Shown: piece after piece, positions 12,306 through 59,736 of the stretch
How the letters are laid out: the number at the start of each line of letters is the position of its first letter
How positions within the stretch are numbered: position 1 is the first letter of the stretch
Source: a virus
Lineage: Duplodnaviria; Caudoviricetes
Strand: one strand, 5' to 3'
Virus record (IMG/VR): IMGVR_UViG_3300028048_000039
Location: 256,001 to 320,000 of that record
DNA: 64,000 nt
Position numbers and translations under genes: made by a program
Notes under the pieces: model-generated
Told to the model about the DNA's origin: nothing
Seen by the model: only the letters and a program-made list of their open reading frames with translations
Database searches by the model: none

Positions 12306-13037
12306 ATGAAAATTATATTGAACGAACAACAGTTTAATAGATTAGTTACTGAGGAGGTAATGATAAGCGTCCTTAATGAGTCTATTTTTGAAAAGGGCGA
12401 CCTTAAGCTTGCATTAAAGAGTATTAGAAATGCAATCATTGGTGGTGTTGCTGCTGCTACAATCATAGCTGCCATTGGACGTGCGAACATGCCAAGCGAA
12501 CAAAAGGATAGGCTTGTTGATGAAGTTAATAAAATTGAAATGGCAATTAACGGAGAAAAACAAGAGAATACAGCAAACTTAGAAGAAAAGATTAGGGCTT
12601 GTGAGGAATATATGGCTTACGCACTTAAGAACCAGGGCTATACCCTTAAATCCACCAAGTTAAAACCAGAAACACTTGTTAAGGTTGCAACAGAAAATAA
12701 TTTTGACCTCCCGTTCTTGATGGCTGCTGCTCATGATGAAAGCTGCTTTGGTGCTAACAAGAGGGCACAGAGAACAAATAGTGTGTTCTCAGTCGGTTCC
12801 TATGATGATGGAAGAAATGTTGTGACATATTCCGACCCTAATGATAGTGTTGCTGATTATATTAGTCTTCTTGAAAGACGTTATTTACGTAACGGCAAAA
12901 CTATCTTTGACCTTCTGGTTCCTGGTCAATTCGTTGACGTTGATGGCCATCGTTATGCAGGCAACAAAAATTATGAAAACGAATTAAAGAGCATAAGAAA
13001 TAGAATTTTAAAGATGTTCCCGGTGCTGGGTTCTTAA
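12306..13037 (+). CDS. lysozyme-fold (GH73/glucosaminidase-like) peptidoglycan hydrolase with N-terminal cargo-like leader
   Basis: FLMAAAHDESCFG...NSVFSVG...RYAG..YE motifs; hydrophobic segment near residues 44-57. Confidence 0.7.
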   Translation: MKIILNEQQFNRLVTEEVMISVLNESIFEKGDLKLALKSIRNAIIGGVAAATIIAAIGRANMPSEQKDRLVDEVNKIEMAINGEKQENTANLEEKIRACEEYMAYALKNQGYTLKSTKLKPETLVKVATENNFDLPFLMAAAHDESCFGANKRAQRTNSVFSVGSYDDGRNVVTYSDPNDSVADYISLLERRYLRNGKTIFDLLVPGQFVDVDGHRYAGNKNYENELKSIRNRILKMFPVLGS

Positions 13038-13052
13038 AAAAATGTTAATATT

Positions 13053-14132
13053 ATGAAGAAGAAACGTATTATAAAAGAAAGTCATATCAGAAAGATGGTT
13101 AAGGAGTGTGTTCAGCTTCTTACTGAGGAAAGGTATGATAAAATTAAACCAAGAGTGTTCCAAGTGTTTAAGGATTACTTTACTGGAGAAAAATTTGCAA
13201 GAAAGAATAGAGGTTATGCGTTCCAAGAAAATACACTTTTACACAGGGAATTTGAACACGTAGATAATCCACAGCACTTTACATATATCGAATACATGAT
13301 ACATCAATTCGAGGAAACATTCTTCCATGATGAAAAGTTTAGAGATTGTGCAGTTGCTAGATTAGCCCCTATGATTGCAAGGATGGCTCTAGAAGATGGT
13401 AATTTTCAACAATTGGGATATAACTGTTGGGTAACTGCTAGGTTGAGTAAGATACTTGGTCTTCTCTACCTCATGCAGAAAAATGGTCAAATAAAACTTG
13501 AAAAGGCTTTTCCTGATAACGTTATTGATACAATGACATTTGAAGAACTCAATGCAAAATATGGTCCAGTACTTGATGAACAATTAAGAAAGATGCGTGA
13601 GCAAATTAGGGAGAAGGCAGCTTCTTATACAGGTCAAAGCGACTATGAATTAATTGAAGATGTTGACTTTAATACTGCAAGGGAAATTGGTCAACATTCC
13701 GGTATTAATGGTAATGGTGCCATCTGTTACGCCACCCAGCCAATTACTTGGAGTAATTATACTGCTGATGGAAAATATAAGGTTTACGTCCTTCTTAAGA
13801 AAGGATGGAGGGATATTCCGGCAGAACATGATGATGAAACTAAGTCGCCTTATGATACTTATGGTATGAGTATGATTTTTGTTGGTGTTGCACCAGATAA
13901 AGAATACACTGGTGATGGAGAAATCGCTTTCTGTAATACAAGATGGAATCACGCCGCAAAGTACACACCTGAGAAACCAATGGATTACGCATTAGATGAA
14001 TTAGACCTTAGTAATTTAGTACAGAAACCATTTAATGATGTATTTACACCTTATACAAAGGAAGAACTTCGTGCAAAGGGGCTTCTTGATGATGAAAATG
14101 AGGAGGATGACAAATATGAAGATTTCGATTAA
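13053..14132 (+). CDS. hypothetical protein, Cys/RWNH-domain family paralog 1
   Basis: Leader IIKESHIRKMVKECVQLLTEE; ICY...YDTYGMSMIFV...NTRWNH. Confidence 0.8.
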   Translation: MKKKRIIKESHIRKMVKECVQLLTEERYDKIKPRVFQVFKDYFTGEKFARKNRGYAFQENTLLHREFEHVDNPQHFTYIEYMIHQFEETFFHDEKFRDCAVARLAPMIARMALEDGNFQQLGYNCWVTARLSKILGLLYLMQKNGQIKLEKAFPDNVIDTMTFEELNAKYGPVLDEQLRKMREQIREKAASYTGQSDYELIEDVDFNTAREIGQHSGINGNGAICYATQPITWSNYTADGKYKVYVLLKKGWRDIPAEHDDETKSPYDTYGMSMIFVGVAPDKEYTGDGEIAFCNTRWNHAAKYTPEKPMDYALDELDLSNLVQKPFNDVFTPYTKEELRAKGLLDDENEEDDKYEDFD

Positions 14133-15078
14133 GGAAAAGGACGTTAGAAAGATGGTTAATGAATGTCTTAATGTCATTCTTGAAAACCGTGCTCAAACTG
14201 CAAGGAAACGTGTTGAAGCTGTCATTAGGAGCCGCTTTGGTGGGTTTCCATTAGATAGAGTACACCCAAATAGAGAGGAAAACCCACACGGACTTACCTT
14301 ACTTGAACTTGTGGTTGAAACTTTCTTTGGTGAATTCTTCTCGGTAAGTGATATGGAGAATACTCCAGTTATAAGACTTGCCCCAATGATTATGAGAATA
14401 GCATTTGACCTTGGCTATCAAACGCCACAGGGAGATGCAGAGAAGTTGGAGAGACTTAGACAAATTGTGTTCTACCTCTACCTCGAATATAAATATGGTA
14501 GAATTGACCTTGCAAAGACATTCCCTGAAGGTTCATTAGAAACTGTTACATACGATGAACTGAACCGTACATTTGGAAGAAAGGTCGATGAAAAGTTTGC
14601 CGAGGAAGATGATGAGATTGAAAAGACTGATTTTAGTGGAAATAATGATTATGAAATTCTTGAAGATGTAGATTATAATACAGCACATGAGTTAGGCAGA
14701 CATTCTTGCCCAACAAGTATCATTTGCTACACTTCAAATCAATTTGTGTGGAATTATTATACAAACGGCGGAAGAAATAAGGTATATGTTCTCTTGAAAC
14801 CAGGTTGGAGGGACCTTAAGCCAGTTCATGATGACGGAAAGGAGAAGGGTAGTGCTTATGATACCTACGGACTTTCAATGATATTTGTAATCATTGCCCC
14901 ATCGGGAAAGATTGCTTGTGTAAATACTAGATGGAACCACATGGCAACATTTAAAGAAGGTTGTTGCTGTAATCAGGACCTTACGAGGTTAGACTTAAGC
15001 AAATTAGTTCATGATAAATTTAGTAACGTATTTAAACCATATACTCCAGAAGAATTAAGGAGAAAGGGTTTGAGGTAA
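14116..15078 (+). CDS. hypothetical protein, Cys/RWNH-domain family paralog 2
   Basis: Start reset to ATG 14116 (MKISIKEKDVRKMVNECLNVILE); colinear with paralog 1. Confidence 0.8.
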   Translation: MKISIKEKDVRKMVNECLNVILENRAQTARKRVEAVIRSRFGGFPLDRVHPNREENPHGLTLLELVVETFFGEFFSVSDMENTPVIRLAPMIMRIAFDLGYQTPQGDAEKLERLRQIVFYLYLEYKYGRIDLAKTFPEGSLETVTYDELNRTFGRKVDEKFAEEDDEIEKTDFSGNNDYEILEDVDYNTAHELGRHSCPTSIICYTSNQFVWNYYTNGGRNKVYVLLKPGWRDLKPVHDDGKEKGSAYDTYGLSMIFVIIAPSGKIACVNTRWNHMATFKEGCCCNQDLTRLDLSKLVHDKFSNVFKPYTPEELRRKGLR

Positions 15079-15109
15079 AAAAAGAAGCAGAGGTTTTCCT
15101 CTGCTTTTT
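15077..15109. terminator. bidirectional terminator
   Basis: aagcagagg-tttt-cctctgctt between convergent genes. Confidence 0.75.
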
Positions 15110-15494
15110 ACTTTATAATGACCCTAAGGTCTTCTTCAATCGGTACCTTTAAGTTTCCCGTAGGATATTCAACACCGTCAGATGTCAAGTCCCCATTGAA
15201 CTTAATTTCAAACCACGCTTTATAATATCCCTCCCTAGCAACATCCCTCTTGGTCCATGGATATTGGAGAATGTACTTTTCTTCGCACCCCTCACCACTG
15301 GCAAGTACGACATTTGCTGGGGCATTTGCTACCTTTAAAATCCCGGTTTCTTCATCTATCATTGAAAAGGTTACGATGCTATCTTGTAATGCATCGTTCA
15401 TAAGAGACTTCTGGAAGTCATATCTTCCATCCTTAATGAGTTCCATTTCCAAGACAGGGTTTAACGAACCTTTATTTATAAAAAATTCTTGCAT
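15108..15494 (-). CDS. BppU-like Ig-fold virion protein
   Basis: FFINKGSLNPVLE...ILQYPW...DVAREGYYKAWFEIKF pattern; late motif upstream. Confidence 0.55.
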   Translation of the reverse strand: MQEFFINKGSLNPVLEMELIKDGRYDFQKSLMNDALQDSIVTFSMIDEETGILKVANAPANVVLASGEGCEEKYILQYPWTKRDVAREGYYKAWFEIKFNGDLTSDGVEYPTGNLKVPIEEDLRVIIK

Positions 15495-15510
15495 AATCTT
15501 CTTTTTACTG

Positions 15511-15518
15511 ATAAATAG
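15511..15518 (-). promoter_or_regulatory. late promoter motif CTATTTAT
   Basis: ATAAATAG on the + strand. Confidence 0.7.
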
Positions 15519-15520
15519 TC

Positions 15521-15985
15521 CTATTTCTTTGTTTTATAGATACTGAAGCCTTGTTTATTTATCATTTCCTTAAATTTTGGAAGTAAATTAGATACTATTC
15601 GTGAAATCTCATCATAATATTCCTTAAAACCACTGATGTTCCTTCCAATGTTTAATTTTTTTGGCTGGAAAAATATCTGAAATGAGAAACAGGACCTCTT
15701 TCCTTGTGATATGTGGTCCTCAGCGATTTCAAAATTGCTTACATACTTTGCGTCGCTGGTCAATGCAACGTTCTTGAAAATACCACATATTTCCTTATTA
15801 ATTGAATTCACCAAATCCTTTACACTTGATGAATAATTTTCTCTTGAGAAATTAGGCATTAGATAACAACTGCCTTCGATGTAGACAACACCCATAATCT
15901 TCTTATCTGTTGTCCCAACTTTTAACTTAAATAAATCATCCGAAATGGCCTTTTCGCTATTAATTTTTTTCATTCTTTCATCCAT
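15521..15985 (-). CDS. hypothetical protein
   Basis: 154-aa ORF with its own promoter. Confidence 0.7.
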   Translation of the reverse strand: MDERMKKINSEKAISDDLFKLKVGTTDKKIMGVVYIEGSCYLMPNFSRENYSSSVKDLVNSINKEICGIFKNVALTSDAKYVSNFEIAEDHISQGKRSCFSFQIFFQPKKLNIGRNISGFKEYYDEISRIVSNLLPKFKEMINKQGFSIYKTKK

Positions 15986-15993
15986 TTATTAAC

Positions 15994-16021
15994 AATATAA
16001 GGATTTTTTCAAAAAAGTCAA
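15994..16021 (-). promoter_or_regulatory. early/middle-type promoter
   Basis: TTGACT-N16-TATATT. Confidence 0.6.
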
Positions 16022-16036
16022 GAGGTGGGGGTAAAT

Positions 16037-16140
16037 AAAAAAAGGGACCTTGCGCATAGGTCCCTATTGCGGCTAACCTTGTGGCCTCACAGCGAGACTT
16101 GGGCGAGTGCCGCTATCTAATGTCACAACATTTCCCAATC
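16037..16140 (-). ncRNA. candidate ~100-nt structured non-coding RNA
   Basis: GC-rich island between a minus-strand late motif (16146-16153) and an 8-bp hairpin plus U7 terminator (16037-16065). No ORF; several stems. Confidence 0.6.
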
Positions 16141-16145
16141 TATAT

Positions 16146-16153
16146 ATAAATAG
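16146..16153 (-). promoter_or_regulatory. late promoter motif CTATTTAT driving the ncRNA candidate
   Basis: AACTATTTATATATA on the minus strand with no downstream ORF before the terminator. Confidence 0.6.
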
Positions 16154-16207
16154 TTTGTTAGGCTTATTTCGCTGTAAAATAAGAAAAAAATATTTCCTTA
16201 TTCCAGA

Positions 16208-16215
16208 CTATTTAT
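16208..16215 (+). promoter_or_regulatory. late promoter motif CTATTTAT
   Basis: Recurrent intergenic motif. Confidence 0.7.
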
Positions 16216-16235
16216 AAGTAATAAAAAGATTGAAA

Positions 16236-17705
16236 ATGATTAGGCATTTTTTCCTCGATAAGACAAATAGTATTTTTGAAGGTTCCTTACAGAACGTTGG
16301 GATAAACCCTGTTTTGCACATTGGCTACGGAAAGAGTTTAATGAGGGGACTGTTACATTTCGACACTTGTCAGGTGGGAGAGCTTATTAAAGATAAAACT
16401 TTTGCTAACATTGAAAAGTTAAAGATAACCCTTAAGATGACCAACTGTTTCTCAATTGATGGACTTCCTTATGAAAAGAACTTAATAAATCCATTAACCA
16501 GGAGAGCAGCGTCATTTGACCTTATGCTAACCAAGCTGCCTTGCGACTGGGATGCCGGAAGAGGGTTTGATTTTATCAGTGATTTTTGGGTGAAAAACAA
16601 CCGTTCATACTCACAGGAAGCCTCCAACTGGTATTGTCCAAAAGACGGCCTATTATGGCCTTATGAAGCTGACTTATTAGACCTCAATAACCCCGAACTT
16701 AATTGGGCTGAATTTAAGATAAACAAATTCGGCGCAAAGGGTGGTGTATATCCAATGATTATGTTAAAGGAAGAATATGAAAAATATCTTGACGGAGAAG
16801 ACTCACTTGTAGTGGGAGTACAGCACTTTGACTTCGGTAATGAAAACCTCGAAATTGATGTTACTGATTATGTAATGGGTGCAATAAAGTCTGGCAATAA
16901 TCCAGGACTTCTCCTTTCCTTTACTCCTAGGTTTGAGAATATGAACTTGGATAACGAAGAATATGTTGGTTTCGTTACTGATAAAACTAACACTTTCTTC
17001 CATCCTTATATAGAAGTTGAATATGATGATTTTATTTCAGATGATAGGGAGTCGTTCACAATAGGAAAGAAAAATAAACTTTGCCTTTATGTTTCTGATA
17101 ACGGTGAAATGGTTAACTTAGATGAGGTTCCTACTTGTTCAGTTAATGGAACCGAGGCTGAGGTTAGGCAAATTACAAAGGGCGTTTATGAAGCTACCGT
17201 TTCTTCTGATGGAATGTCTGAGAATGCAATTTATTATGACACTTGGTCTAACATCTTACTTGATGGTGAAGAACAGGATGATATTGAGCTTGAATTTGCA
17301 ACAAATCCTAAGGAGAGGAAGATTAAGATAGGAACTAATGTTGATATTAAGAGAAACTTCGTTCCTTCAATATACGGAATTAATGACGATGAAAAACTTG
17401 GAAGGGGTGAAACGAGGGAAGTTACTGTTGACTTCAGGAAGCAATATGAAACAGAGAAGAGAGAATTAATTGACGGCGCAATGTTCCGTCTCTACGTGAA
17501 AGATGCTGATAGGGACATTGATATCATAAATTATCATCCAATTGAAAAAGGTTTCTTGTATAACTACTTCATGATACATACAGAGGACCTTATTCCAAAT
17601 GAATATTACATTGATATAAGAATAAAGACTGGTCGTGAAATAAAATACTTCAAGAGAGTATTGAAATTTACGGTTGTAAGTAATGTAACTGAGAGATATA
17701 ATTAA
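16236..17705 (+). CDS. probable virion structural protein (beta-sandwich, DNRLRE-like RGLLHFD motif)
   Basis: Late motif upstream; RGLLHFD..., EIDVTDYV...NPGLLL, HPYIEVEY. Confidence 0.55.
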   Translation: MIRHFFLDKTNSIFEGSLQNVGINPVLHIGYGKSLMRGLLHFDTCQVGELIKDKTFANIEKLKITLKMTNCFSIDGLPYEKNLINPLTRRAASFDLMLTKLPCDWDAGRGFDFISDFWVKNNRSYSQEASNWYCPKDGLLWPYEADLLDLNNPELNWAEFKINKFGAKGGVYPMIMLKEEYEKYLDGEDSLVVGVQHFDFGNENLEIDVTDYVMGAIKSGNNPGLLLSFTPRFENMNLDNEEYVGFVTDKTNTFFHPYIEVEYDDFISDDRESFTIGKKNKLCLYVSDNGEMVNLDEVPTCSVNGTEAEVRQITKGVYEATVSSDGMSENAIYYDTWSNILLDGEEQDDIELEFATNPKERKIKIGTNVDIKRNFVPSIYGINDDEKLGRGETREVTVDFRKQYETEKRELIDGAMFRLYVKDADRDIDIINYHPIEKGFLYNYFMIHTEDLIPNEYYIDIRIKTGREIKYFKRVLKFTVVSNVTERYN

Positions 17706-17707
17706 GT

Positions 17708-20041: not shown

Positions 20042-20064
20042 TAATACTACAAATACATATAAGC

Positions 20065-20316
20065 ATGGAAGAAGATGTGTTTAAGTCTGCTATTGCAGCA
20101 ATATCTTCCAATGAGTTTTCTGAAGAAGATGTTAAGACTGTAAAGAAATGGCTCGAAACGCTGAAAACAAAAGAAAACGCAGTAAAGCGAAAGATTGAGC
20201 AAGAGAAAAACACGTTTGTAAAGAATAAGAGTAAAAACAACTCAAAACTAAAAGAAATTAGAAGTGAAATTAAGACAATAAAGAACATACTTAAAAATAG
20301 TAATGGGGACCGTTAA
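20065..20316 (+). CDS. small coiled-coil hypothetical protein
   Basis: 83-aa ORF. Confidence 0.55.
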   Translation: MEEDVFKSAIAAISSNEFSEEDVKTVKKWLETLKTKENAVKRKIEQEKNTFVKNKSKNNSKLKEIRSEIKTIKNILKNSNGDR

Positions 20317-20329: not shown

Positions 20330-20333
20330 ATTA

Positions 20334-21209: not shown

Positions 21210-21210
21210 G

Positions 21211-30097: not shown

Positions 30098-30105
30098 CTA
30101 TTTAT
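30098..30105 (+). promoter_or_regulatory. late promoter motif CTATTTAT
   Basis: Recurrent intergenic motif. Confidence 0.7.
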
Positions 30106-30125: not shown

Positions 30126-30587
30126 ATGTTAATTTCAGAAGAAAAGTTAAAAAATATAATAGCTGAGAGTATTGCTGAGGAGTTGGACGAGTCACTTTTT
30201 ACACAAAAACTTGGTGGTGCAATTAGAAAAGGTGTAAATTGGGCTGGAAATGCCTATAATAAGACAAAAAACTTCTTAAGGAATGGATATAATGACTTTA
30301 AGAAGGGTTATGGTGTTCAACAAAACACGCAAAGACATACTAATGCTACACCTCAGCAGCAACAAACAGTTGATTTAAGTAAGCCACATCAGTTGCCAAA
30401 CTTGCTTCAAAACCCAGTTGTCAAGAGACAGAGGACACGTAAGCAGCAGCCAGCACAGCAGACACAACAAAACCAAAACACCCAGCAACCACAGCAGCCA
30501 ATACAGCAAGGACCAACATTTACTAATCAAAACGATAATAAAAACTTTGGTGGCGGTTATGGAATGGATTATGGTACTGAAGAATAA
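30126..30587 (+). CDS. Gln-rich protein with cargo-like leader
   Basis: MLISEEKLKNIIAESIAEELDES followed by a Q/P/T low-complexity region. Confidence 0.75.
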   Translation: MLISEEKLKNIIAESIAEELDESLFTQKLGGAIRKGVNWAGNAYNKTKNFLRNGYNDFKKGYGVQQNTQRHTNATPQQQQTVDLSKPHQLPNLLQNPVVKRQRTRKQQPAQQTQQNQNTQQPQQPIQQGPTFTNQNDNKNFGGGYGMDYGTEE

Positions 30588-31833: not shown

Positions 31834-33924
31834 ATGAGAGTTGCAATAAATGAAAACGACATAAGACGAATGGTGAGTGAGTGTGTGAGATTATTGACTG
31901 AAGACAGAGAAGGAAAGAATATAAATCTTGCAAGAAAGTTCCTTGAAACGAGGGGTATTGATGACTTAGAGAGAAGACAAGAGATACTTGATGATGTTCG
32001 TAGGGCAATACCTAACTCAAGGTTGGCAAAGTGTAAATTCTTACTTGGCGTCACAAGGATGTATGTCGATAAAGAATTAAATGCTAGAGTTAAGGATAGA
32101 TTAAATCAGACACTTGAAATTATTGCGTCAGATGCACACGTTAATGAATATGACAGTAACCTCAATGGTGAGAAAGCAATAACACTTATAGATAGGTTTA
32201 GCACTGCAATAGCTAGTGAACTTTCAAAGGCAAAGGCAGCTTCAGATGCCCAGGAGAGAGTTAGAAATGAAAATTATAGGATAATTCCAATAGATACCCC
32301 ACAGGCTGCCGCTCAATACGGGAAGTACACCAGTTGGTGTGTTACTCATAGTAGTAGTATGTATAATCATTATACAAAGGAAGGCCTTGGACGTTTCTAC
32401 TTCTGCCTCAGGAATGGTTTTGAAAGAGAACCAGAAGTTAAGGGTGATGGGTGTCCACTTGATAGTTATGGATTGTCAATGATTGCTGTATCAGTTAATT
32501 CTGATGGTTCTGTTAACACAATTACTTGTCGCTGGAATCATGCCAATGGTGGAAACGACAATATAATGAAGGTCGGGCAACTTGAGGACCTTCTTGGTGT
32601 AAACTTCTATAAGACATTTGTACCTTATAGTAGCCAAGAACTTCGTCAAAAGGGAGTAATTCCACTCGAAGAAATACAACAAGAACTAGATAATGGTGCT
32701 GACCCTAATAGTCTTTTCAAGTCTATTTCTAATTTTACTAATGGATATGCTGTTGTTGAAACAAGAAGTAGTCGTAAATACAACTTCATGTCAAAAGATA
32801 AGAAGATTCTATTTCCTGACAGGTGGTTTGATTACGCTACCGCATTTAAGAAGGGACTATCAAAGGTTACTATTAATTGGAGACGTAATATAATATCTAA
32901 GGAAGGGAAGTGTTTCATAGGTGATTTCAATGATATTGATACCTGGCCAAGAGAAATTTACGGCTTCCATGAGGGATTTGCTAGAATAACTTTCTACGGG
33001 CAAGAAGAATATGGTTGGAAGGAAAATTATGTAAATGAAAAGGGGAAACTCTTATATGGCACATTTGATGATAAGAAAGACTGGTTTGACACCGCAAGAA
33101 CATTCTCAGGCGGTTTGGGTAAGGTTAGGAAGAAAAATAAGTACAACTTCATAAAACCTAATGGTAAGTTTTTACTTAAAGTTTGGGTGAACACATACCA
33201 GAAACTTTATGTTGGTAGTAACAAGTATAATGCACTTATAAAGGTAGGAAGTAAGGGTAATATTCTCACCAGTGATAATAAAATGGTATTTAAGAATTGG
33301 TTTGATGGTTTAAAGAAAATAAGCTATATAGAACCAGGCCAATGGTCCAGAACACAAGGTCTGATAATTAAGACAAAGGGAAAGATGAATATTTTTTATC
33401 CTGCAACCGAAAGTTTTCTCTTTGGGAATAAGAAGATTAGTACTTGGCCAAAGGACATAAAATATGTTGATGATGCAAATAGTTACTGGGGTGATAGAGT
33501 AATTATTGGTGTTCGTCAAACTGATAGAGATAAATATAAATTAATATCCTTAAAAGATAAAAAAGAATGCCCTTACCTTGTTGATAATTTTGAAAAAATT
33601 AATAATTATTTTTACTTTGTAACAAAGGATGGTGTCAAAAATATAATGCGTAAAAGCGATTTTCATATTGAACTAGATAGGTGGGTTGATAGTAAAAGCA
33701 TTATAGCAATAAAAACTTGGTGGCGTGAATACTTGTTTATAAAAAATGGGGATGTTTTTGACCTTTTTGAAATCTCTAGTAATAAGCTAACAAAACCTTT
33801 GGATAATATTTCTGAAATAGAAAAAATAGAAGATGGAGAAGGAAGGGGAGATATTGCAAGAATAAAGTATAAAGATGTGGATGGCTATTATTATCTAGAT
33901 TATAGAGGTAATATACATAGATAA
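31834..33924 (+). CDS. Cys/RWNH-domain family paralog 3 with WG-like beta repeats
   Basis: Leader INENDIRRMVSECVRLLTE; SWCVT...DSYGLSMIAV...TCRWNH; F.NGYAVV...YNF repeats. Confidence 0.8.
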   Translation: MRVAINENDIRRMVSECVRLLTEDREGKNINLARKFLETRGIDDLERRQEILDDVRRAIPNSRLAKCKFLLGVTRMYVDKELNARVKDRLNQTLEIIASDAHVNEYDSNLNGEKAITLIDRFSTAIASELSKAKAASDAQERVRNENYRIIPIDTPQAAAQYGKYTSWCVTHSSSMYNHYTKEGLGRFYFCLRNGFEREPEVKGDGCPLDSYGLSMIAVSVNSDGSVNTITCRWNHANGGNDNIMKVGQLEDLLGVNFYKTFVPYSSQELRQKGVIPLEEIQQELDNGADPNSLFKSISNFTNGYAVVETRSSRKYNFMSKDKKILFPDRWFDYATAFKKGLSKVTINWRRNIISKEGKCFIGDFNDIDTWPREIYGFHEGFARITFYGQEEYGWKENYVNEKGKLLYGTFDDKKDWFDTARTFSGGLGKVRKKNKYNFIKPNGKFLLKVWVNTYQKLYVGSNKYNALIKVGSKGNILTSDNKMVFKNWFDGLKKISYIEPGQWSRTQGLIIKTKGKMNIFYPATESFLFGNKKISTWPKDIKYVDDANSYWGDRVIIGVRQTDRDKYKLISLKDKKECPYLVDNFEKINNYFYFVTKDGVKNIMRKSDFHIELDRWVDSKSIIAIKTWWREYLFIKNGDVFDLFEISSNKLTKPLDNISEIEKIEDGEGRGDIARIKYKDVDGYYYLDYRGNIHR

Positions 33925-35296: not shown

Positions 35297-35668
35297 ATGA
35301 AAAAAGAGTATATAGATTTCGTTTGTGCCTTGCATGGATACCTTATTAGGTCAAAGGAAATACATTGGAACACAAATTCTAATGCAGAGCACCTATTATC
35401 TGATGACTTCCATGCTGACCTCCTTGAATGTGAGGATAAGTTTATGGAATGCTGTATGGGTATGGAGGGAAAACATTTTCAGTTAGGCAAATTACTTCCA
35501 ATGGTACCTAATGCTGAAGCGTTTATACCAATGTTGAAAGAATTGGAACGTGATATTCTTGATATGAAGAAGAAATGTACTGCACCAACTGATGGTGGCC
35601 TTAACAATATCCTTGATGATATGTTAGAGTGTGTTAATAAGTACAAATATAGAGCAACACAGAAGTAA
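35297..35668 (+). CDS. ferritin/Dps-like four-helix protein (DUF5856-like)
   Basis: KEIHWNT.S.AEH...D......D.F.E..MG ferroxidase-type pattern. Confidence 0.7.
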   Translation: MKKEYIDFVCALHGYLIRSKEIHWNTNSNAEHLLSDDFHADLLECEDKFMECCMGMEGKHFQLGKLLPMVPNAEAFIPMLKELERDILDMKKKCTAPTDGGLNNILDDMLECVNKYKYRATQK

Positions 35669-35669: not shown

Positions 35670-36317
35670 ATGAGGAAAACTCTAATTATAACAGAAAAAC
35701 AGCTTGATGAAATATGTGGCGGTAACGGTGCATACCTAGATAATCTTGCTATAAAGCCAGATGTTGGCGGTGACTTTGCTAATAAAGTTACTACTGGTGG
35801 TGAGAATAAGGAAGGCTATTCAAAACCACTTACTGGCGACGACTTTGTTAAGGATGTTGGTGCTGCTAATAACTGGAGGTTATACACTAGAAGTACATTA
35901 AACCGTGGACCTATGGCTGGAACAATGTCCCCTGCGGTATGCGAAATGACAAAGCGTGAGTGGGAAGAGAAAATTTTAGAGGCCCATGGAAACAAGAGAC
36001 TAAATGATAGAACATTTGATGGCCAAAGTTATGGCGCAGCAACAGTTGCTAAGTGTAGAATGAATAAAGCCATTAAAAAAACGGCTTCACTGGACCCAGA
36101 AACCAGAAAAGAGGGATTAAGGACACTTAGTAAAATGAAGACAAATGGTGTTAAAAACCTTGAAGCCGCACAGGGTCTTGATAAAATCATACAAGATAAT
36201 AAGCCAGAGGGTGAAAAGATAACCTCAGCACCTAAGACATATGGAAATAATGGTGCTCATAGTAAGAAGACTCCAGGTGTATTCCTGAACGAGCATAAAA
36301 AGAATAAAATAAAATAA
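35670..36317 (+). CDS. hypothetical protein with short cargo-like leader
   Basis: Start reset to MRKTLIITEKQLDEI. Confidence 0.7.
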   Translation: MRKTLIITEKQLDEICGGNGAYLDNLAIKPDVGGDFANKVTTGGENKEGYSKPLTGDDFVKDVGAANNWRLYTRSTLNRGPMAGTMSPAVCEMTKREWEEKILEAHGNKRLNDRTFDGQSYGAATVAKCRMNKAIKKTASLDPETRKEGLRTLSKMKTNGVKNLEAAQGLDKIIQDNKPEGEKITSAPKTYGNNGAHSKKTPGVFLNEHKKNKIK

Positions 36318-52466: not shown

Positions 52467-52491
52467 TAGTTAAAAGATTTTGCAAAATGAA

Positions 52492-52522
52492 GAAATCCGT
52501 ACAGAAATGTGCGGATTTTTTT
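52492..52522 (+). terminator. intrinsic terminator
   Basis: aaatccgtaca-gaaa-tgtgcggattt followed by a T-run. Confidence 0.8.
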
Positions 52523-52591
52523 ATCTAAATTGGTCTTTATAAAAACAAAGTTTTTATGTATTTAAAAACTCGGCAATTTAAGACTTGCTTA

Positions 52592-52599
52592 CTATTTAT
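52592..52599 (+). promoter_or_regulatory. late promoter motif CTATTTAT
   Basis: Recurrent intergenic motif. Confidence 0.7.
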
Positions 52600-52624
52600 G
52601 TAAAAAATAGTCTATTCTATTGCA

Positions 52625-53230
52625 ATGAGAGTATATAATAAACGAAGCAACATATTACAAAATAACGAACCAGTACTTCCCGCCCCATCTTCATTGGAAT
52701 ATGGCGAGTTGTCAATTAATTATGCTGCAGGGCATGAAACAATAGCAATAAAGAACGATAATAACGAGATTATAACCTTTTTACCTGGTAAACAGGGTCC
52801 TCAAGGTCCTCAGGGAGAACAAGGAGAAGTTGGAGTACAAGGACCGCAGGGGATAGGTGGTGCTCAGGGACCACAGGGTGCTGATGGTACAAGCGGTGAT
52901 GAAGGAAAGCAAGGACCTCAAGGTGCTAACGGTTCTAATGGAACTGATGGTAAGCAAGGCCCACAGGGTGCCGATGGTATAAATGGAAAACAGGGTCCTC
53001 AGGGAGTAAATGGTTCTAACGGAACCAACGGTACTAATGGAAAGCAAGGACCTCAAGGTCCAGAAGGGCCAAGCACAATTCCTACAATTGGAACAGGAGA
53101 TGAAGGAAAGGTACTTAAGGTGGTAAACGGCATTTGGGCATTAGTTACACCAATTAATGTATATTCAGGTTCAGGAACCCCTCCTGCATCTGTAGGAATT
53201 GGCGGAGATTTATATTTACAGACAAGTTAG
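52625..53230 (+). CDS. collagen-like fibre protein
   Basis: About 31 Gly-X-Y triplets (GKQGPQG); N-terminal [10 protein letters not shown] fibre-anchor motif. Confidence 0.8.
52786..53070 (+). repeat. collagen Gly-X-Y coding repeats
   Basis: Repeated ggtaagcaaggacctcaaggt-like units. Confidence 0.85.
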
Positions 53231-53313
53231 TTCTTAGATAAGGAAAATAAATATTGGGATAGTAAATCTTGTGTAAGCAAGCATATTATTACTTATTAAA
53301 AAAAATTGTTACT

Positions 53314-54615
53314 ATGTCGTATTTTATTAAGATAGATAATATATGGACAAAAATATTGACTTGCTATAAGAGAGAAAATAATGTATGGCTTGAAATAAAT
53401 CAGGCTGAACTTACTCAATATTTAAATACTAATATTTCCTTTTATGCAGGACATATTAGTGGTGACCATACCCTATCGGTAGTAGGCGCTACAAATGTCA
53501 GTGGAGAGACAAGTTCTTATATTGCATTATATGATGGCCGTTATGACGTTACAAGTGCCGCAATTTGGCTTATCTTAACGGGTAGTACATATGCAACCAT
53601 TGGGGAGCATACAGGTATTGTAACAATATTATCATCAGCAACTGCATCTAATGTTTCGATAGGGGCATCTTATCAGGGATTAACTGATGTTAAAGACTTA
53701 GTTCTTACTTATAAATCAGGAAGTAGTGCCCATACCGACGTGGAAGTTATTGTTGATGAAAGTGGTAACACAGAAACAACCACAATTACAGTAATTGAAA
53801 ATGAAGATGGAAGTTCAAATACAACTTCAACCACAATTATTACCGATGAAAGCGGAAATACCATTGGTTCGCAGAAATCTGAAACAAATACCAACGCTGA
53901 TGGCTCTTATAATGGGTCCACTACCAACTATAATGAAAATGGTGAAGCAACTGATACAACCAACGTTACTGGCGATACCCAAGGAAACGTTGACACTCAG
54001 GATATCGTTTACGATGACCAAGGTGTTCCTACGGTAACTGGATATACCATTGATACTTCTAATAATCCTGAAGGAAGTAAAGACATTACAGGTGACGGAG
54101 TTAATACGGGGTTCTATCCGTTTGATGGCGGAGACGGATTTGAACTACACATTAAGTTTAGGTCAGCAAAGTTAGAACAGCCAAATCCACCACTTGTTGA
54201 GGATACAGAAGATAAAGGTAGCAACTATCACTTTACTATCTTGTGTTCCAAAGACCCACGTTCTCCTTATCCAGGATTCCACATACGGTGGACACTTTCT
54301 AAAACCAACTACAATTCAGGAAACCTTGTTTTTGGATACAGAGGAAGAACGGGAAGTTCAACAAACAGAAGTCTTGCACTATCCAAGCATGACAATTTGT
54401 ACGAATACCGTATTGTCTATGACCCTGAATTGAAGAAGTATCCTAGTAAGTTTAGGTGTGAAGACCTTCTAAACGGTGCTGCTACAATTTCGTTGAATAT
54501 CGACTTTAATCCACTCAACTACGGACTTACCTTAGGTTACAACATTAACATGTCTGGAGAGCCTTACAGATATTCTAATGTAGATATTCTTGAATTTAGT
54601 GTTACAAAACTATAG
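53314..54615 (+). CDS. fibre/decoration protein with Ig-like domain and Thr-rich repeats
   Basis: Start reset to ATG 53314; Ig-like W..LTGS.YATI..TG segment; repeated T..T..DE.GN / N.DGS hairpins. Confidence 0.6.
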   Translation: MSYFIKIDNIWTKILTCYKRENNVWLEINQAELTQYLNTNISFYAGHISGDHTLSVVGATNVSGETSSYIALYDGRYDVTSAAIWLILTGSTYATIGEHTGIVTILSSATASNVSIGASYQGLTDVKDLVLTYKSGSSAHTDVEVIVDESGNTETTTITVIENEDGSSNTTSTTIITDESGNTIGSQKSETNTNADGSYNGSTTNYNENGEATDTTNVTGDTQGNVDTQDIVYDDQGVPTVTGYTIDTSNNPEGSKDITGDGVNTGFYPFDGGDGFELHIKFRSAKLEQPNPPLVEDTEDKGSNYHFTILCSKDPRSPYPGFHIRWTLSKTNYNSGNLVFGYRGRTGSSTNRSLALSKHDNLYEYRIVYDPELKKYPSKFRCEDLLNGAATISLNIDFNPLNYGLTLGYNINMSGEPYRYSNVDILEFSVTKL

Positions 54616-54693
54616 CAAAAATTTTCCCATTTTTGGCGATTGTTTATGCAATAAAATTCTCGAATTTGAAGTACATAAATTGTATTTTTTTTA

Positions 54694-54701
54694 CTATTTA
54701 T
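54694..54701 (+). promoter_or_regulatory. late promoter motif CTATTTAT
   Basis: Recurrent intergenic motif. Confidence 0.7.
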
Positions 54702-54719
54702 AAGAAAAAGAGGACTGTT

Positions 54720-55064
54720 ATGAAAAAATTCGTTTTACTTTTATTTTTTGCCTCAATAGTAGGTAGCTGTTGTTTATTCCGTCATGGTCATAAAGACAAA
54801 GATGGAGTAATCTCTGGTGCTAGTATGAGGACAGAGTTCTCATTTGAGGCTACTATGCAGCAAGTTGACTCTGTATGCATAGCTGATACACTTCCGACAC
54901 TTAATAAGTGGCTTTCAAGAAAGTTTGAAGACTTTGAAACCGGGTTCATTAATGAAAAACTCATGTATATCAAAGTTTTGAATAATAAGAAAGAGGTAAT
55001 CTACATTCTTCTCATTGATAAAGAAGAACCTTACCCATTTGAGAAAAGAGTTGCGGAGAAATAG
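54720..55064 (+). CDS. putative lipoprotein
   Basis: MKKFVLLLFFASIVGSC signal peptide with lipobox; start reset to 54720. Confidence 0.7.
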   Translation: MKKFVLLLFFASIVGSCCLFRHGHKDKDGVISGASMRTEFSFEATMQQVDSVCIADTLPTLNKWLSRKFEDFETGFINEKLMYIKVLNNKKEVIYILLIDKEEPYPFEKRVAEK

Positions 55065-55066
55065 TT

Positions 55067-55696
55067 ATGAGAAAGAAGAATTTAGTCTTAGGTTGTACAC
55101 CATCAGTCCTCGATGGAACAGAATATCACTTTACAGGTGACTCACAGCAGGAATTACCAACAAATTATTCTTATAGAGAATATCTTCCACCAATACTCAA
55201 TCAGGGTGAACAGTCAATTTGCGTTCCATGTTCAGTTTCTGCATATCTTAATTGGAAGGAAAACCTCAAGGATGGGTCAACAAAGGATAATAAAGTTGCC
55301 TTAATGGACATTTATAACAGTAGGCCTAATAATACCAATGGTATGACCTTTAAGGATGCTCTCAATTTTCTTAGACATAAGGGAGTAAAGAGCAAGGCTG
55401 GTAAATTAATGATAGATACTTATTCACTTGTTCATAGAGTTAGGGACCTTCAGTATGCAATTGTAATGAATGGCCCTTGTCTTGGTGCTCTCCCAGTATG
55501 GTCCAATACCGATGATTTCTGGAAGGATGATAATGCTAATAATTTTTATGGTTATCACGCAATTTCCATTGTAGGTTATGATGAAGAAGGCTTCATTATT
55601 AGGAATTCCTGGGGAAAAAGTTATGGTGATGGTGGTTATTATAAGGTGCCATACTCTGACTTCCTTAAATTTGTGGAAATTTGGACAATAGTTTAA
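55067..55696 (+). CDS. papain-like cysteine peptidase (C1 family)
   Basis: NQGEQSIC, GYHAISIVGYD, IIRNSWG..YG..GY. Confidence 0.9.
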   Translation: MRKKNLVLGCTPSVLDGTEYHFTGDSQQELPTNYSYREYLPPILNQGEQSICVPCSVSAYLNWKENLKDGSTKDNKVALMDIYNSRPNNTNGMTFKDALNFLRHKGVKSKAGKLMIDTYSLVHRVRDLQYAIVMNGPCLGALPVWSNTDDFWKDDNANNFYGYHAISIVGYDEEGFIIRNSWGKSYGDGGYYKVPYSDFLKFVEIWTIV

Positions 55697-55704
55697 GTAA
55701 ATCA

Positions 55705-55733
55705 TTGATTTTTTAACAATTTTTCGTTATTTT
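55705..55733 (+). promoter_or_regulatory. early/middle-type promoter
   Basis: TTGATT-N17-TATTTT. Confidence 0.45.
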
Positions 55734-55756
55734 CTCTTAAAAGAAGTTTAAGAGAT

Positions 55757-56674
55757 ATGAAAACTATTTTAGTTACTGGAGGAGATGGCCAGTTAGGACT
55801 TACATTATTTGAACAATCAGTGCTTTTAGGCAAACCTGAGGATAATTATGTCTTTCTTGGACATAAAGACCTTGATATTACCAGTAAAAAGTCAATAGAG
55901 GAAGCATTTAAGAAGTATAAACCAGACATTGTAATCAATTGTGCTGCATTTACCAATGTAGAGAGTGCTGAAACAAAGAAAAAAGAGGCATATAATATTA
56001 ATAGCACGGCAGTTGAAAATTTAAAGAAGGCATGTAAGAAGCATAATGCCTTTCTTTTCCATTTTTCAACTGATTATGTTTATGACGGTACAAAGAATAC
56101 CCCATACACAGAGGAAGATGATGTAAATCCATTAAATATCTACGGTTCTTCTAAACTTCTTGGTGATATGATGCTCTTAGGTAATGAAAACGTCATAATA
56201 TTTAGAGTTTCATGGCTATATTCCAATTATGGTAACAATTTCTTCAAGAAAGTTATGGAATTTGTCAAAGAAGGCAAGCAAATGAGTGTGGTTATCGACC
56301 AAATTGGTACCCCTACTTACGCTAGAGACCTTGCAAATACCATTATATTCATAATAAATGATGAAAAATATATTGGTAAGTCAGGAATATATAATTTTTC
56401 AGAAGAGGGAACGTGTTCTTGGTATGACTTTGCAAAGGCGATAGAACTACTTGCAAGAGAACATCAGTATGGTCCATTAAATAATAGTATTTTTAACCCA
56501 TTTATCATTCCTTGCAAAACTGCAAGCAGAAAAGATAAAGCAAAACGTCCAAGTTATAGCGTTTTAGACAAAAGTAAGTTTTATGAAGACTTTCATTTTT
56601 TAAAAAGGCCGCATTGGCTTGAGGCACTTAATATATGTATGAATATTGAGCTGTCAAAAATGGTATTAAATTAG
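55757..56674 (+). CDS. rfbD: dTDP-4-dehydrorhamnose reductase
   Basis: ILVTGGDGQLG, INCAAFT.V..AE, STDYVYDG, YGSSK, DQIGTPTYA.DLA, AKRP.YSVLD. Confidence 0.93.
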   Translation: MKTILVTGGDGQLGLTLFEQSVLLGKPEDNYVFLGHKDLDITSKKSIEEAFKKYKPDIVINCAAFTNVESAETKKKEAYNINSTAVENLKKACKKHNAFLFHFSTDYVYDGTKNTPYTEEDDVNPLNIYGSSKLLGDMMLLGNENVIIFRVSWLYSNYGNNFFKKVMEFVKEGKQMSVVIDQIGTPTYARDLANTIIFIINDEKYIGKSGIYNFSEEGTCSWYDFAKAIELLAREHQYGPLNNSIFNPFIIPCKTASRKDKAKRPSYSVLDKSKFYEDFHFLKRPHWLEALNICMNIELSKMVLN

Positions 56675-58317
56675 GGTGTCCAAACATATTTTATAAGTCC
56701 ACAGTCATATATTTTAACATAACCGAGACTATTAGTCATTTCAGTTTCTGTCATAGTTAATGGTAGTCCATACTTTTTATGGAGTGTCTGTTTTCTAAAG
56801 CCGAATTTATGTTGTCTTTTAGCTCCATCATAAGGGCTATAATATCTATATTCTGCCGGCGTATAGCCACAAAACTTAAAACCTATTTTAGTATATAGAT
56901 TATCACTTTCATTTATTGTCCATCTTCTGTCAGCGAATGATTTTACTTCGCTTGGGGCATATTCTTTTGTGAAAAACTTAAATATTTTTCCACCAATTCC
57001 TTGACAAACGACATTATTTTTACTTGCAAACCTTGTAAGTTCCCACTTATCTTCGCCGTCTTTTTTAAAAGTCATTACTGCAACGAGTTCTTCAGAAGAA
57101 AATGCTCCAAGATATATGCTTGAGCCAACAAATCCTTGTATGTGATTTTTTTCAAGAAATACTTTTGCTGTTTCTTTATCTATTTTCTTGACGATGCATT
57201 TTCTTGCCATTATTTTCTCTGCATTTTCATATTTTTTTAGAATATGCCTTATTTTTGATAGCACGACATCTTTTGCATTTATATATTCATCTTCGAAAAT
57301 CTGTAACAGCCCAATTCCCCTTTCCTTACATTTTTCTGTTTTTGATAAGTGGTAGTTTTTGTCTTTATTATGCCAATAAAGGCCATTATATTCAATGGCA
57401 ACATTGAGAGATGGAATAAATATGTCAAGCTCTTTTCCATCTAAGACATTTCTATCGTGTTCTATAACATTTTCTTCCCCTATAAGCGTCTTGACATAGT
57501 TAAGTATCTCTATTTCATTCTTTGAGAATGGCTGAGTACATTTTGGACAGCCATTTCCTTGAAGATGCTTATCTGGCGTCTGCCAAAATTCTCCATGCTT
57601 AGGGCAAATTATACAAACCTTATTTTTGGCAGTGACATATTTCACTTTTGAGTAGTCATATTTATCACCATGTATCTCCTTAGCACGTTTTAAAAAATCA
57701 ATATTTGTTAATCTTCTACTTTTTGCGTTAATTTCTTTTGCACACTTTGGACACAATGTACCATTAATATGAATGTATGGGTTTTGCCGAAATTCACCAT
57801 GTTCAGGACAGATAATTTTTACTTTTTTATTCATCCCGTTATATGTGGTTTCAGAATAGTCATATTTATCGCCATGTACTTCTTTTGCTGCTGCAATAAA
57901 AGTTTGTGTTGTGTATTTTTGTGGCCTTTTAATAGATTTAGAACAACTAGGACAACCTTTTCCCTTCAAATGGTTATGCGGGTCTTGCCAAAATTCACCA
58001 TGTTCAGGACAAATTATGCATACTTTGGTGGTATTGTTAATATACTTCACTTTTGAATAGTCATACTTGTTGCCATGTACTTTAATGGCATCAGAAATAA
58101 AGCGCTCTAGGTCTTTTTTCTTATTCCCGTAGCAATCTGGACACCCCTGCCCAGCAAGGTGCTTATCTGGCGTCTGCCAAAATTCTCCATGCTCAGGACA
58201 GATGATACATACTTTTGTCTTATTACTAATATAATTTACTTTTGAATAGTCGTATTTATTTCCGTGAATTTGCCTTGCTTCATTTTTAAATTCTTCAGTT
58301 GTCTTTTTTTTACTCAT
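56671..58317 (-). CDS. putative homing endonuclease: 4 zinc-ribbon repeats + nuclease + GNAT-like C-terminal domain
   Basis: 4x CPEHGEF.Q repeats; ELDIFIP..NVAIEYNGLYWH; NHIQG...WELTRFAS...SFADRRW...IYDCG. Confidence 0.8.
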   Translation of the reverse strand: MSKKKTTEEFKNEARQIHGNKYDYSKVNYISNKTKVCIICPEHGEFWQTPDKHLAGQGCPDCYGNKKKDLERFISDAIKVHGNKYDYSKVKYINNTTKVCIICPEHGEFWQDPHNHLKGKGCPSCSKSIKRPQKYTTQTFIAAAKEVHGDKYDYSETTYNGMNKKVKIICPEHGEFRQNPYIHINGTLCPKCAKEINAKSRRLTNIDFLKRAKEIHGDKYDYSKVKYVTAKNKVCIICPKHGEFWQTPDKHLQGNGCPKCTQPFSKNEIEILNYVKTLIGEENVIEHDRNVLDGKELDIFIPSLNVAIEYNGLYWHNKDKNYHLSKTEKCKERGIGLLQIFEDEYINAKDVVLSKIRHILKKYENAEKIMARKCIVKKIDKETAKVFLEKNHIQGFVGSSIYLGAFSSEELVAVMTFKKDGEDKWELTRFASKNNVVCQGIGGKIFKFFTKEYAPSEVKSFADRRWTINESDNLYTKIGFKFCGYTPAEYRYYSPYDGAKRQHKFGFRKQTLHKKYGLPLTMTETEMTNSLGYVKIYDCGLIKYVWTP

Positions 58318-58351
58318 ATAACAGTTCTTTTAGGGTCTGATATTTTTTATA

Positions 58352-58380
58352 AATATACAAATAAATAGAAAGAAAAACAA
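58352..58380 (-). promoter_or_regulatory. early/middle-type promoter with nested late motif (58361-58368)
   Basis: TTGTTT-N17-TATATT with CTATTTAT in the spacer. Confidence 0.5.
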
Positions 58381-58412
58381 AAAAAACGTGCATAAATTTA
58401 TGCACGTTCTCT
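58379..58412 (-). terminator. intrinsic terminator after tail tube
   Basis: aacgtgcataa/ttatgcacgtt inverted repeat with an A-run on its left. Confidence 0.75.
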
Positions 58413-58431
58413 TTTTCAGATAAATTGTAGA

Positions 58432-58920
58432 TTAGTAGCAAAGTATGCAATAATCTGGACGGAGTGTAACTGCGATTGTAGCAATATCATCCTGGCTATA
58501 ACTCAAATCATTGAAGTTAATGTTGGTAATGAAGCAACCCTTAAGAAGCCACTTCTGTACAACAGCACCTGTTGGGTCAAGAAGGTCCAACTCAACATCG
58601 CGTTTGTAACCTGCAGCATAACCCTGACGTCCAGTAACTGTTTCTGAACCAAGTCTAACCCACTCCATCAATGCCTGAGATGTTGAAGGTCCGATTGGGT
58701 CACGGAAAGTTAACTGCATTTCCTGCCAAGTATATCTACCAAGAACCCATGTTGAGGTGTTCAAGAACTGAATTTCAGTTGCGTTCTGGTTCAAGTTTGG
58801 ACGAGCACCAGATTCAACGGTCCACTCCTGAATACCGAGGTCTGAAGGAAAACGGAAGATAAATCTATTTTTCCTTAAGGGTTCTATCTGATTCGGCATT
58901 TTAAGTAATAAATCACTCAT
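58432..58920 (-). CDS. tail tube protein (gp19-like)
   Basis: EPLRKNRF, GRYTWQEM..TFRDPI.PS..QA.MEW, GY...YKRD..L..LDP.G.VV.KW.LKG.F. Confidence 0.92.
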   Translation of the reverse strand: MSDLLLKMPNQIEPLRKNRFIFRFPSDLGIQEWTVESGARPNLNQNATEIQFLNTSTWVLGRYTWQEMQLTFRDPIGPSTSQALMEWVRLGSETVTGRQGYAAGYKRDVELDLLDPTGAVVQKWLLKGCFITNINFNDLSYSQDDIATIAVTLRPDYCILCY

Positions 58921-58951
58921 ATACGTATATTATTTAATCGATTATTTTATA

Positions 58952-58959
58952 ATAAATAG
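58952..58959 (-). promoter_or_regulatory. late promoter motif CTATTTAT (tube)
   Basis: ATAAATAG on the + strand. Confidence 0.7.
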
Positions 58960-58983
58960 TGTTATTTTATTTTTTTAGTTTTG

Positions 58984-59736
58984 TTACAATAATTTAATAT
59001 TAAAGTACAAAAGGTGGTCTGAGTGCTTGTTGAGGTCATAATAATCATCAAGCATACCTTGTATTTCTTTATCAGCCTCTTCTCTGCTTACTTTTCCGCC
59101 ATCTTCTCTTGAAACACATATTTTAGCATTGAAACATGCCTCTTCAACTTCCTCATCATCGTACTCATCATTGTAATCTGGGTCTATAGTGCTCATTGGT
59201 GTTGATGCTGCAGCCTTAGCGGCCTCTCTTGCCCTGTCAGCCATTGTATTGATATCATCAATATTGGCATCTTCTTTTAAGGTTTTTTTTCTTGACTTCT
59301 TGGTCTTTCTTCCTTCATAAACGCCGTCTTTTCCGTACATTAATTTTGCCTTATATGTGCGCAATGTTTCGGTTGCCATGGCGATAGGCCCCTCATGAGC
59401 ATCAAGTGCTTCAAGCTTCTCAAGGTCCTTATCAAGTTTATAGTGTTCCCATGCGTCTATGTTTCCTGGTTTTACGATGTCGTTATAGACATTGTTAAGA
59501 TAAAGTGCAACGTCTCGGTCACTAGCAGTTCCGTCTAATGTCTTTTTTCTTGCTTCTTCCACTTCAGGAATTCCAGCAGGAACGTAATCTGGGTCAGCTT
59601 CATCATCACCATCTTCTTTATCCATGAAGAAATATTCGTTAAGTTTTAACCCACTATCTTCTTTCAACACTCTCTTTACGCTTTCAGCAACAATTTTCCT
59701 GAGAGTGGCCTCGTTTATTTTAACTCTCTTTTTCAT
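58984..59736 (-). CDS. acidic protein with cargo-like leader
   Basis: MKKRVKINEATLRKIVAESVKRVLKED plus further LNE/LKE sites. Confidence 0.75.
   Translation of the reverse strand: MKKRVKINEATLRKIVAESVKRVLKEDSGLKLNEYFFMDKEDGDDEADPDYVPAGIPEVEEARKKTLDGTASDRDVALYLNNVYNDIVKPGNIDAWEHYKLDKDLEKLEALDAHEGPIAMATETLRTYKAKLMYGKDGVYEGRKTKKSRKKTLKEDANIDDINTMADRAREAAKAAASTPMSTIDPDYNDEYDDEEVEEACFNAKICVSREDGGKVSREEADKEIQGMLDDYYDLNKHSDHLLYFNIKLL

Follow-up and report, generated by a model that had tools for sequence, protein, structure and literature searches.

Propeptides of 10–19 residues direct the internal proteins of bacteriophage T4 to the core of the developing head and are removed by the gp21 protease; these proteins co-purify with gp22, both ends of Alt are processed, and foreign proteins fused to the T4 signal are packaged and delivered (PMC9026906). 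Here we describe a peptide tag of 22–26 residues, found as a leader on proteins encoded in a window of 64,000 nucleotides, i.e., bases 256,001–320,000 of the linear virus record IMGVR_UViG_3300028048_000039 (344,580 bp, estimated to be 93% complete). The record represents an uncultured, T4-related phage of 345 kb from rumen Prevotella-type bacteria. We estimate at roughly 55% the probability that the tag is a capsid-loading signal which mimics the scaffold and is cut by the head protease.

Scanning the proteome set used for all genome-wide profile searches, 1,260 open reading frames (ORFs), with an iterated hidden Markov model (HMM) of the leader revealed 17 carriers, with domain E-values from 4e-12 to 2e-6. 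The profile consensus is MKKxIRLTESDLxxIVKESVxRVLKE. A regular expression given for the leader in a first-pass annotation of the window matched 12 ORFs genome-wide. When the first 32 residues of all genes were clustered blindly, the tag group was the largest N-terminal cluster, and the same clustering of a tag-less relative, G010, yielded nothing comparable. Elsewhere in the genome the motif is also found at the C-terminus of three tandem paralogues of 814–859 amino acids (aa), and in one further protein it is internal, after a DUF3008 domain. Conservation of the tag acts on the protein level: identical residues share a codon 456 times versus 414 expected from codon usage, and serine is encoded by both AGY and TCN codons. 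A nucleotide-level element was rejected, because the codons are nearly randomised while the residues are kept. Searches of the tag against Pfam and PHROGs found no family, a PDB sequence search with its profile gave a chance match only (E 1.7), and the ESM Atlas returned only unnamed viral clusters. A full-text literature search for tag strings found no paper, and neither the jumbo-phage reviews nor the Jug-phage paper mention such a tag.

The genome encodes the machinery that such a signal would require. A prohead protease of the Peptidase_S77 type (T4 gp21 family; PF03420, 99.1 bits) lies just upstream of the window at genome positions 253468–254034. The window itself encodes a Gp23-family major capsid protein (window 180..2204, + strand; PF07068, 8e-74), together with the large terminase, portal, tail sheath, DNA polymerase and helicase. 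Protease, capsid protein, terminase and portal make up a T4-type head module. The closest cultured relatives, judged by the terminase, show only about 27% identity, and 20 kb of the window, searched by megablast, matched no cultured phage; IMG/VR holds hundreds of uncultured relatives, with 596 matches to the capsid gene.

Based on the specificity of the T4 protease, the first-pass annotation had pointed to an LRE|A-type site in the capsid protein, and this holds: the putative maturation site LLRE|A is at aa 57–60 (nt 348–359), the position of the maturation site in T4 gp23, and is kept as L-[LI]-x-E|[AST] in 70 relatives. Motifs of the form [LIVM]-N-E are abundant in the head proteins and in polyprotein linkers. 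In a set of 390 distinct tags, [LIVM]-x-E forms the end of 89%; at each of three registers, i.e., as three nested h-x-E motifs (h, hydrophobic), it is found in 85–89%, and conservation stops directly after the last Glu. In a family of cargo proteins that share a domain with an R-W-N-H motif (the RWNH domain, described below), the conserved cargo is preceded by an h-[LI]-x-E column, be the upstream part a complete tag, a leader in shortened form or the linker of a polyprotein. This pattern fits cleavage at the end of the tag.

The tag is predicted to be an amphipathic helix, whose hydrophobic face covers about half of the surface and whose polar face is salt-bridged. Its centre is a near-invariant Glu-Ser/Cys; relatives frequently have Ala, Gly, Thr or Asn at the central position. 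These properties bear on a second explanation, which is possible and to our mind clearly the less probable one: the helix could stay on the mature proteins as a docking or oligomerisation module, its wide hydrophobic face bundling with like helices or with a hub on a late structure that is not the interior of the head, such as the tail, the fibres, the head surface or a late complex in the cytoplasm. A half-hydrophobic surface with a small residue (Ser/Cys/Ala) at its centre is what packed interfaces look like, several tags per protein at either end would suit such a role, and in an AlphaFold2 (AF2) model the tag is a regular helix that runs on into a helical N-terminal domain. WG repeats on some cargos could likewise be binding modules. 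However, docking leaves unexplained both the sharp end of conservation at h-L-x-E and the recurrence of the same motif at helix-less cargo boundaries. Most cargos, moreover, are small and non-repetitive, unlike fibre or tail proteins, and the likeness of the tag is to the N-terminus of the putative scaffold and to no tail protein.

That likeness is to an acidic protein of 625 aa, encoded at genome 254269-256146 between the protease and capsid genes in a position kept in 12 relatives, which by analogy with the T4 gene order 21-22-23 is the putative scaffold (prohead core). The last residues of its N-terminal helix are L-R-E, after which the sequence turns acidic. Alignment of the tag with the scaffold N-terminus (hhalign) gave P 1.7e-4 over 21 columns and a score of 21.3. 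In comparison, the tag gave P 0.078 with the scaffold C-terminal domain and P 0.047 with the capsid N-terminal region; the reversed scaffold N-terminus scored 11.9, and 150 column shuffles of it had a mean score of 8.0 and a maximum of 14.2. When a profile of the scaffold N-terminus was run on the ORF set, the three best non-self matches were tagged proteins, and eight tagged proteins were among the about thirty matches listed. By these comparisons, nothing in the proteome is closer to the tag than the N-terminal helix of the putative scaffold, from which the tag helix may be derived or on which it may have converged. Complex prediction of the tag with the N- and C-terminal regions of the scaffold scored 0.00, which weighs neither way on binding.

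Next to a motif that fits removal and a likeness to the core, the tagged genes share their transcriptional setting. Of the 78 copies of the motif CTATTTAT in the genome, 58 precede a gene start on their own strand by no more than 120 nt; these (A)CTATTTAT copies stand 6–120 nt, mostly 22–30 nt, before the ATG. Genes behind it include those for terminase, portal, sheath and the head polyprotein, and from this class of genes we take CTATTTAT to be the likely late promoter of the phage clade. All 17 tagged genes are in units behind it (10 directly behind a copy and seven as downstream genes), which upholds the earlier placement of the leader genes in late operons. A copy at window 11376..11383 (+) heads the operon 11398 > 12306 > 13053 > 14116. 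Further copies are at 30098, 31805 and 35268 (+) and at 60134 (-): the first serves gene 30126, the second serves gene 31834, and the last heads an operon whose second gene is 59736(-).

The tagged genes are spread over at least ten loci; the profile scan found none between 135 and 180 kb of the genome. Their neighbours include no recurrent gene family, and a locally encoded partner gene for the tag was rejected on this ground. The same dispersal bears on the idea that a modifying enzyme recognises the tag, much as happens with the leaders of ribosomally synthesised and post-translationally modified peptides (RiPPs). The near-invariant central Glu-Ser/Cys could be read as the modified site, but with at least ten loci and no recurrent neighbouring family, and with central Ala, Gly, Thr or Asn in relatives fitting packing better than chemistry, we regard modification as very unlikely.

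Within the window, the first-pass annotation had assigned the leader to at least seven genes and an internal copy to gene 37532. Five of these genes are strong carriers (13053, 14116, 30126, 31834 and 59736 on the minus strand), one is divergent, one has only the first third of the tag, and the internal copy dropped out, the match in 37532 being not significant (E 5.6 over 11 residues). The gene at 13053-14132 (+) encodes a 359-aa RWNH-domain protein with the tag at aa 1-25 (MKKKRIIKESHIRKMVKECVQLLTE, 13053..13127; HMM E 6e-11); in its AF2 model, with a mean predicted local distance difference test (pLDDT) score of 79.5, the tag forms a helix at residues 9-24. Next to it, gene 14116-15078 (+) encodes a 320-aa RWNH-domain paralogue with the tag at aa 1-23 (MKISIKEKDVRKMVNECLNVILE, 14116..14184; E 5e-10); its start is at 14116 and not at the ATG at 14035, which is inside the preceding gene. 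Gene 30126-30587 (+) encodes a Gln-rich cargo of 153 aa with the tag at aa 1-22 (MLISEEKLKNIIAESIAEELDE, 30126..30191; E 2e-6), for which no Pfam or PHROG family was found. The 696-aa product of gene 31834-33924 (+) combines a tag at aa 1-23 (MRVAINENDIRRMVSECVRLLTE, 31834..31902; E 7e-11) with an RWNH domain and WG repeats, the latter matching PF14903 (WG_beta_rep). On the minus strand, gene 58984-59736 encodes an acidic cargo of 250 aa with the tag at aa 1-26 (MKKRVKINEATLRKIVAESVKRVLKE, 59659..59736; E 7e-12).

The divergent tag, MKIILNEQQFNRLVTEEVMISVLNE (12306..12380, +), opens gene 12306-13037, which encodes 243 aa, and has a one-residue insertion and an HMM E-value of 0.11-0.15. Beyond the tag, the product contains a hydrophobic segment (aa ~44-58) and then a glucosaminidase-like domain, which matches PF01832 at 27.3 bits, below the cut-off of 30.2 bits, and the endolysin family phrog_25820 at 8e-6. 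This product could be carried in the virion to degrade the wall, or it could act as a lysin anchored in the membrane. Gene 12306 is the third gene after the portal gene by one count, and two genes after it by another.

Gene 35670-36317 (+) has a short form only, MRKTLIITEKQLDE (35670..35711), in which the first ~9 residues correspond to the tag (E 5.2) and which is not a full tag. Its product is an N-terminal homologue of that of a head-module gene at genome 251116, with which it forms an N-terminal cluster of two. The two genes (genome 251116-251766 and window 35670-36317) share only the short leader M-[KR]-x-x-x-I-I-T-x-K-Q-L-[ND]-E, and the former is a head-module gene directly ahead of the protease gene. 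This leader may be a second targeting leader, of T4 length. The first gene of the late operon that holds 35670, at window 35297-35668, matches phrog_858 ('starvation-inducible transcriptional regulator') at E 4e-11.

The proteins behind the tag had been described as unrelated to one another. In the window this is only partly so, with 13053, 14116 and 31834 sharing the RWNH cargo, and it is upheld once relatives are included: the cargos of this phage and ten relatives, minus their tags, fall from 79 proteins into 64 BLAST clusters. Almost no cargo has a Pfam family, and PHROGs returned nothing for most of them. Most are small, the cargo genes are dispersed over the genome, and some cargos are large (700-860 aa). 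The one expanded cargo, the RWNH domain, has an invariant Cys, the motifs D-x-Y-G-x-S and R-W-N-H, and often WG repeats thereafter. In addition to the three window genes, it occurs in four further genes and in two modules of a polyprotein of 1999 aa (loci at window 13053-15078 and 31834-33924 and at genome 181797-183932, 216373-223856 and 242640-248639). Its conserved Cys/His/Asp pattern suggests an enzyme. Foldseek against the PDB gave no match to this cargo at E <= 0.001, and VIA-align wide gave only generic helical matches (best Z 4.9); an absent fold match does not make the fold new. In members of the family the tag is N-terminal, C-terminal, shortened or absent. This variable placement shows directly that the tag can be separated from the cargo as a module.

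Two further observations concern cargos with possible functions. A tagged protein of 749 aa, encoded at genome 130955-133204 (-), contains the phosphatase signature HCHQGKSRSG with weak matches to DSPc and Y_phosphatase3, as well as a C-terminal stretch that resembles a phosphoribosyltransferase motif (IIFDDNISGGATL), and is a candidate effector enzyme. Among 150 metagenomic tagged proteins, seven have matches to PF25734, a putative antitoxin family, and another one is an inorganic pyrophosphatase.

We examined the distribution of the tag beyond this phage, first with the leader HMM on related genomes: ten of 12 large related phage genomes carry 4–16 tags each, and the two more distant ones none. 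These two, G010 (345 kb) and G012 (158 kb), have capsid proteins about 59–61% identical and no tag, and their scaffold N-termini differ as well. The tag expansion is therefore specific to one sub-clade. A search of G010 for another recurrent N-terminal leader or tag family, matched to its different scaffold N-terminus, found none.

A profile search of 1.84 billion representative proteins recovered 9,221 protein clusters at E <= 0.001. The best-scoring of these carry 2–4 tags each, located N-terminally, between modules and C-terminally; positions in the metagenomic proteins include 97 classed as 'internal, no M' and 22 at the C-terminus. In the multi-tag proteins the tags separate different small modules, and many internal tags keep a translated spacer and a Met ('...NESKNMNKK...'). 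Such proteins look as if neighbouring tagged genes had been fused by loss of stop codons. Retained spacers, together with the same promoter motif usually standing at a fixed distance before the tag, would also agree with a shared N-terminus that has no function of its own, i.e., a mobile gene-start cassette (promoter and first codons) or a recombination joint. That explanation appears highly improbable to us: it does not account for nearly randomised codons with residues kept, for the 97 internal and 22 C-terminal copies that have neither a Met nor a promoter-derived spacer, or for 9,221 diverged clusters that keep the same residue pattern.

Tagged genes are also present in bacterial chromosomes. 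A pattern scan of 185,579 species genomes revealed 37 loci (L142-L178), mostly in metagenome-assembled genomes (MAGs) of Prevotellaceae, and these matches point to rumen and gut Prevotellaceae as hosts. Three of the loci are from isolates, i.e., Segatella bryantii DSM 11371, Prevotella sp. MA2016 and Prevotella sp. tf2-5; the isolate-chromosome copies are at L154:5998-6261, L159:5395-6423 and L160:5614-6435. At 23 of the 37 loci the tagged gene stands tail-to-tail with a putative IS1595-type transposase gene. In this phage, one of the 17 carriers (11173-12096) is beside such a gene (12466-13452). At least two of the three isolate copies keep a late-type phage promoter (ACTATTTAT or GATATTTAT) about 25–30 nt before the ATG, and many chromosomal copies have an extra in-frame part of ~170-200 aa N-terminal to the tag. 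The simplest view of the chromosomal copies is that they are phage genes moved by a transposon.

Given these copies, one can conceive of the helix as an effector module common to these proteins and active in the cell: it would bind, for example, a single factor of host or phage, which the variable domains then modify or regulate. Such a role would account for the persistence of the transposon-borne copies in host chromosomes, where tagged genes occur in Prevotella and Segatella isolates and many MAGs and mostly adjoin an IS1595-type transposase, and some cargos are enzyme-like (a phosphatase motif HCxxGxxRS and an inorganic pyrophosphatase). We nevertheless consider it unlikely. The retained late-type promoter suggests phage genes moved by a transposon and not host-adapted ones, we know of no candidate target, and both the protease motif and the scaffold likeness are left unexplained. 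A long shot, more doubtful still, is that the tag is a portable ticket into the capsid, copied from the scaffold and exploited by mobile elements: IS1595 transposons would ferry tagged passengers with their late promoters into Prevotella chromosomes, where they would stay silent until a related jumbo phage infects; the late machinery of that phage would then express the passengers, and they would be loaded into progeny heads, either as selfish hitch-hikers or to sabotage the phage, as a 'Trojan horse' of the host.

Capsid loading followed by clipping is the explanation that we prefer, and it could proceed as follows. The tagged proteins would be made late in infection alongside the head proteins, and their helix would bundle with the scaffold helices, so that they co-assemble into the prohead core. 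The gp21-family protease would cut behind the [VI]-L-x-E that ends the tag, with the two internal h-x-E motifs as possible additional sites, and the cargo would be freed inside the head while the scaffold is degraded. The cargo may then exit with the DNA at the next infection; this last step, which the first-pass annotation had already proposed, is one that we purely infer. Tags between the modules of longer proteins would act both as loading sites and as cleavable joints.

Several points weigh against capsid loading. The tag has more than double the length of the minimal T4 signal of 10 residues, and C-terminal copies, copies between modules and 2–4 copies per protein are not needed for a simple leader. 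For non-N-terminal tags, a preceding cut motif is found in 28% versus a background of 34%; a cut site generally present before such tags was rejected on these values, and with no excess of the motif a C-terminal tag may stay on its protein. The VNE, VNE and VRE before the three C-terminal copies in this phage belong to one paralogous family. An enrichment near the head genes of relatives speaks for loading, with 23 of 76 tags no more than 15 kb from the capsid gene where 8.6 are expected, but its significance is inflated by the clustering of tagged genes. The label of scaffold rests on gene order, composition and conservation, and the protein matched no PHROG family. In the forward direction, the tag profile did not retrieve the scaffold from the ORF set at E below about 11, and the likeness is therefore moderate. 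No tag was found in cultured phages by tblastn with a two-tag protein, and tagged genes occur in cultured Prevotella and Segatella chromosomes, where no capsid is made. The 'plug-and-play address label' of the first-pass annotation thus has on its side the protease, the late promoters, the end motif, the diverse cargos and the enrichment near head genes, and has against it the C-terminal, internal and multiple copies, the length and the insertion sequence-borne copies; it is the best reading, and it is not established.

If capsid loading is correct, one scaffold-derived helix would load a very large and fast-changing set of proteins into the capsids of a clade of rumen and gut jumbo phages. 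The tag would then provide a sequence handle for candidate injected effectors (anti-defence, host-takeover) in uncultured phages, and a natural tag to try for loading foreign proteins into large capsids. It would also suggest a testable origin of capsid-targeting signals, by copying of the assembly helix of the scaffold. The transposon-borne chromosomal copies raise the question as to whether hosts or mobile elements use the same ticket. Should the helix instead be a retained docking module, it would still be among the largest unannotated short modules in gut phage proteins.

In comparison with described systems, shell loading by short peptides is known from encapsulins, whose cargo-loading peptides direct unrelated cargo into an HK97-fold shell, and from P22 scaffold fusions, which do the same, with the signal at either terminus. 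These peptides make direct contact with the shell protein, and no protease removes them; the analogy to the tag is one of mechanism only, and no homology is claimed. We know of no common short tag described for SPN3US or phiKZ, whose cleavage motif differs and which are not close relatives of this phage. These giant phages have large capsids with many ejection proteins, several of which are cut by the prohead protease during head maturation (PMC5694885, PMC7411985, PMC10052503). The capsid-targeting sequence (CTS) of T4 IPI, IPII, IPIII and Alt is closest: as in T4, there are T4-type head genes and a gp21-family protease, and a short leader ending in (L/I)-x-E is carried by otherwise unrelated late proteins that look non-essential. 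By this analogy, the tag is most likely a longer version of the load-then-clip signal of T4. Unlike the T4 CTS, which has a minimal form of 10 residues and is strictly N-terminal at about 10–19 residues, the tag is one long amphipathic helix of 22–26 residues that also occurs C-terminally, internally and several times per protein. It further differs in its three nested h-x-E motifs and its likeness to the scaffold N-terminus, and in number, with 17 carriers in this phage and thousands of metagenomic clusters, all known from sequence alone. A capsid-targeting leader on exchangeable cargo is thus already known from T4-like phages; what this phage and its relatives add is the long helical form, the likeness to the scaffold N-terminus, the use at either end and at module joints, the size of the metagenomic family, and the transposon-borne chromosomal copies.

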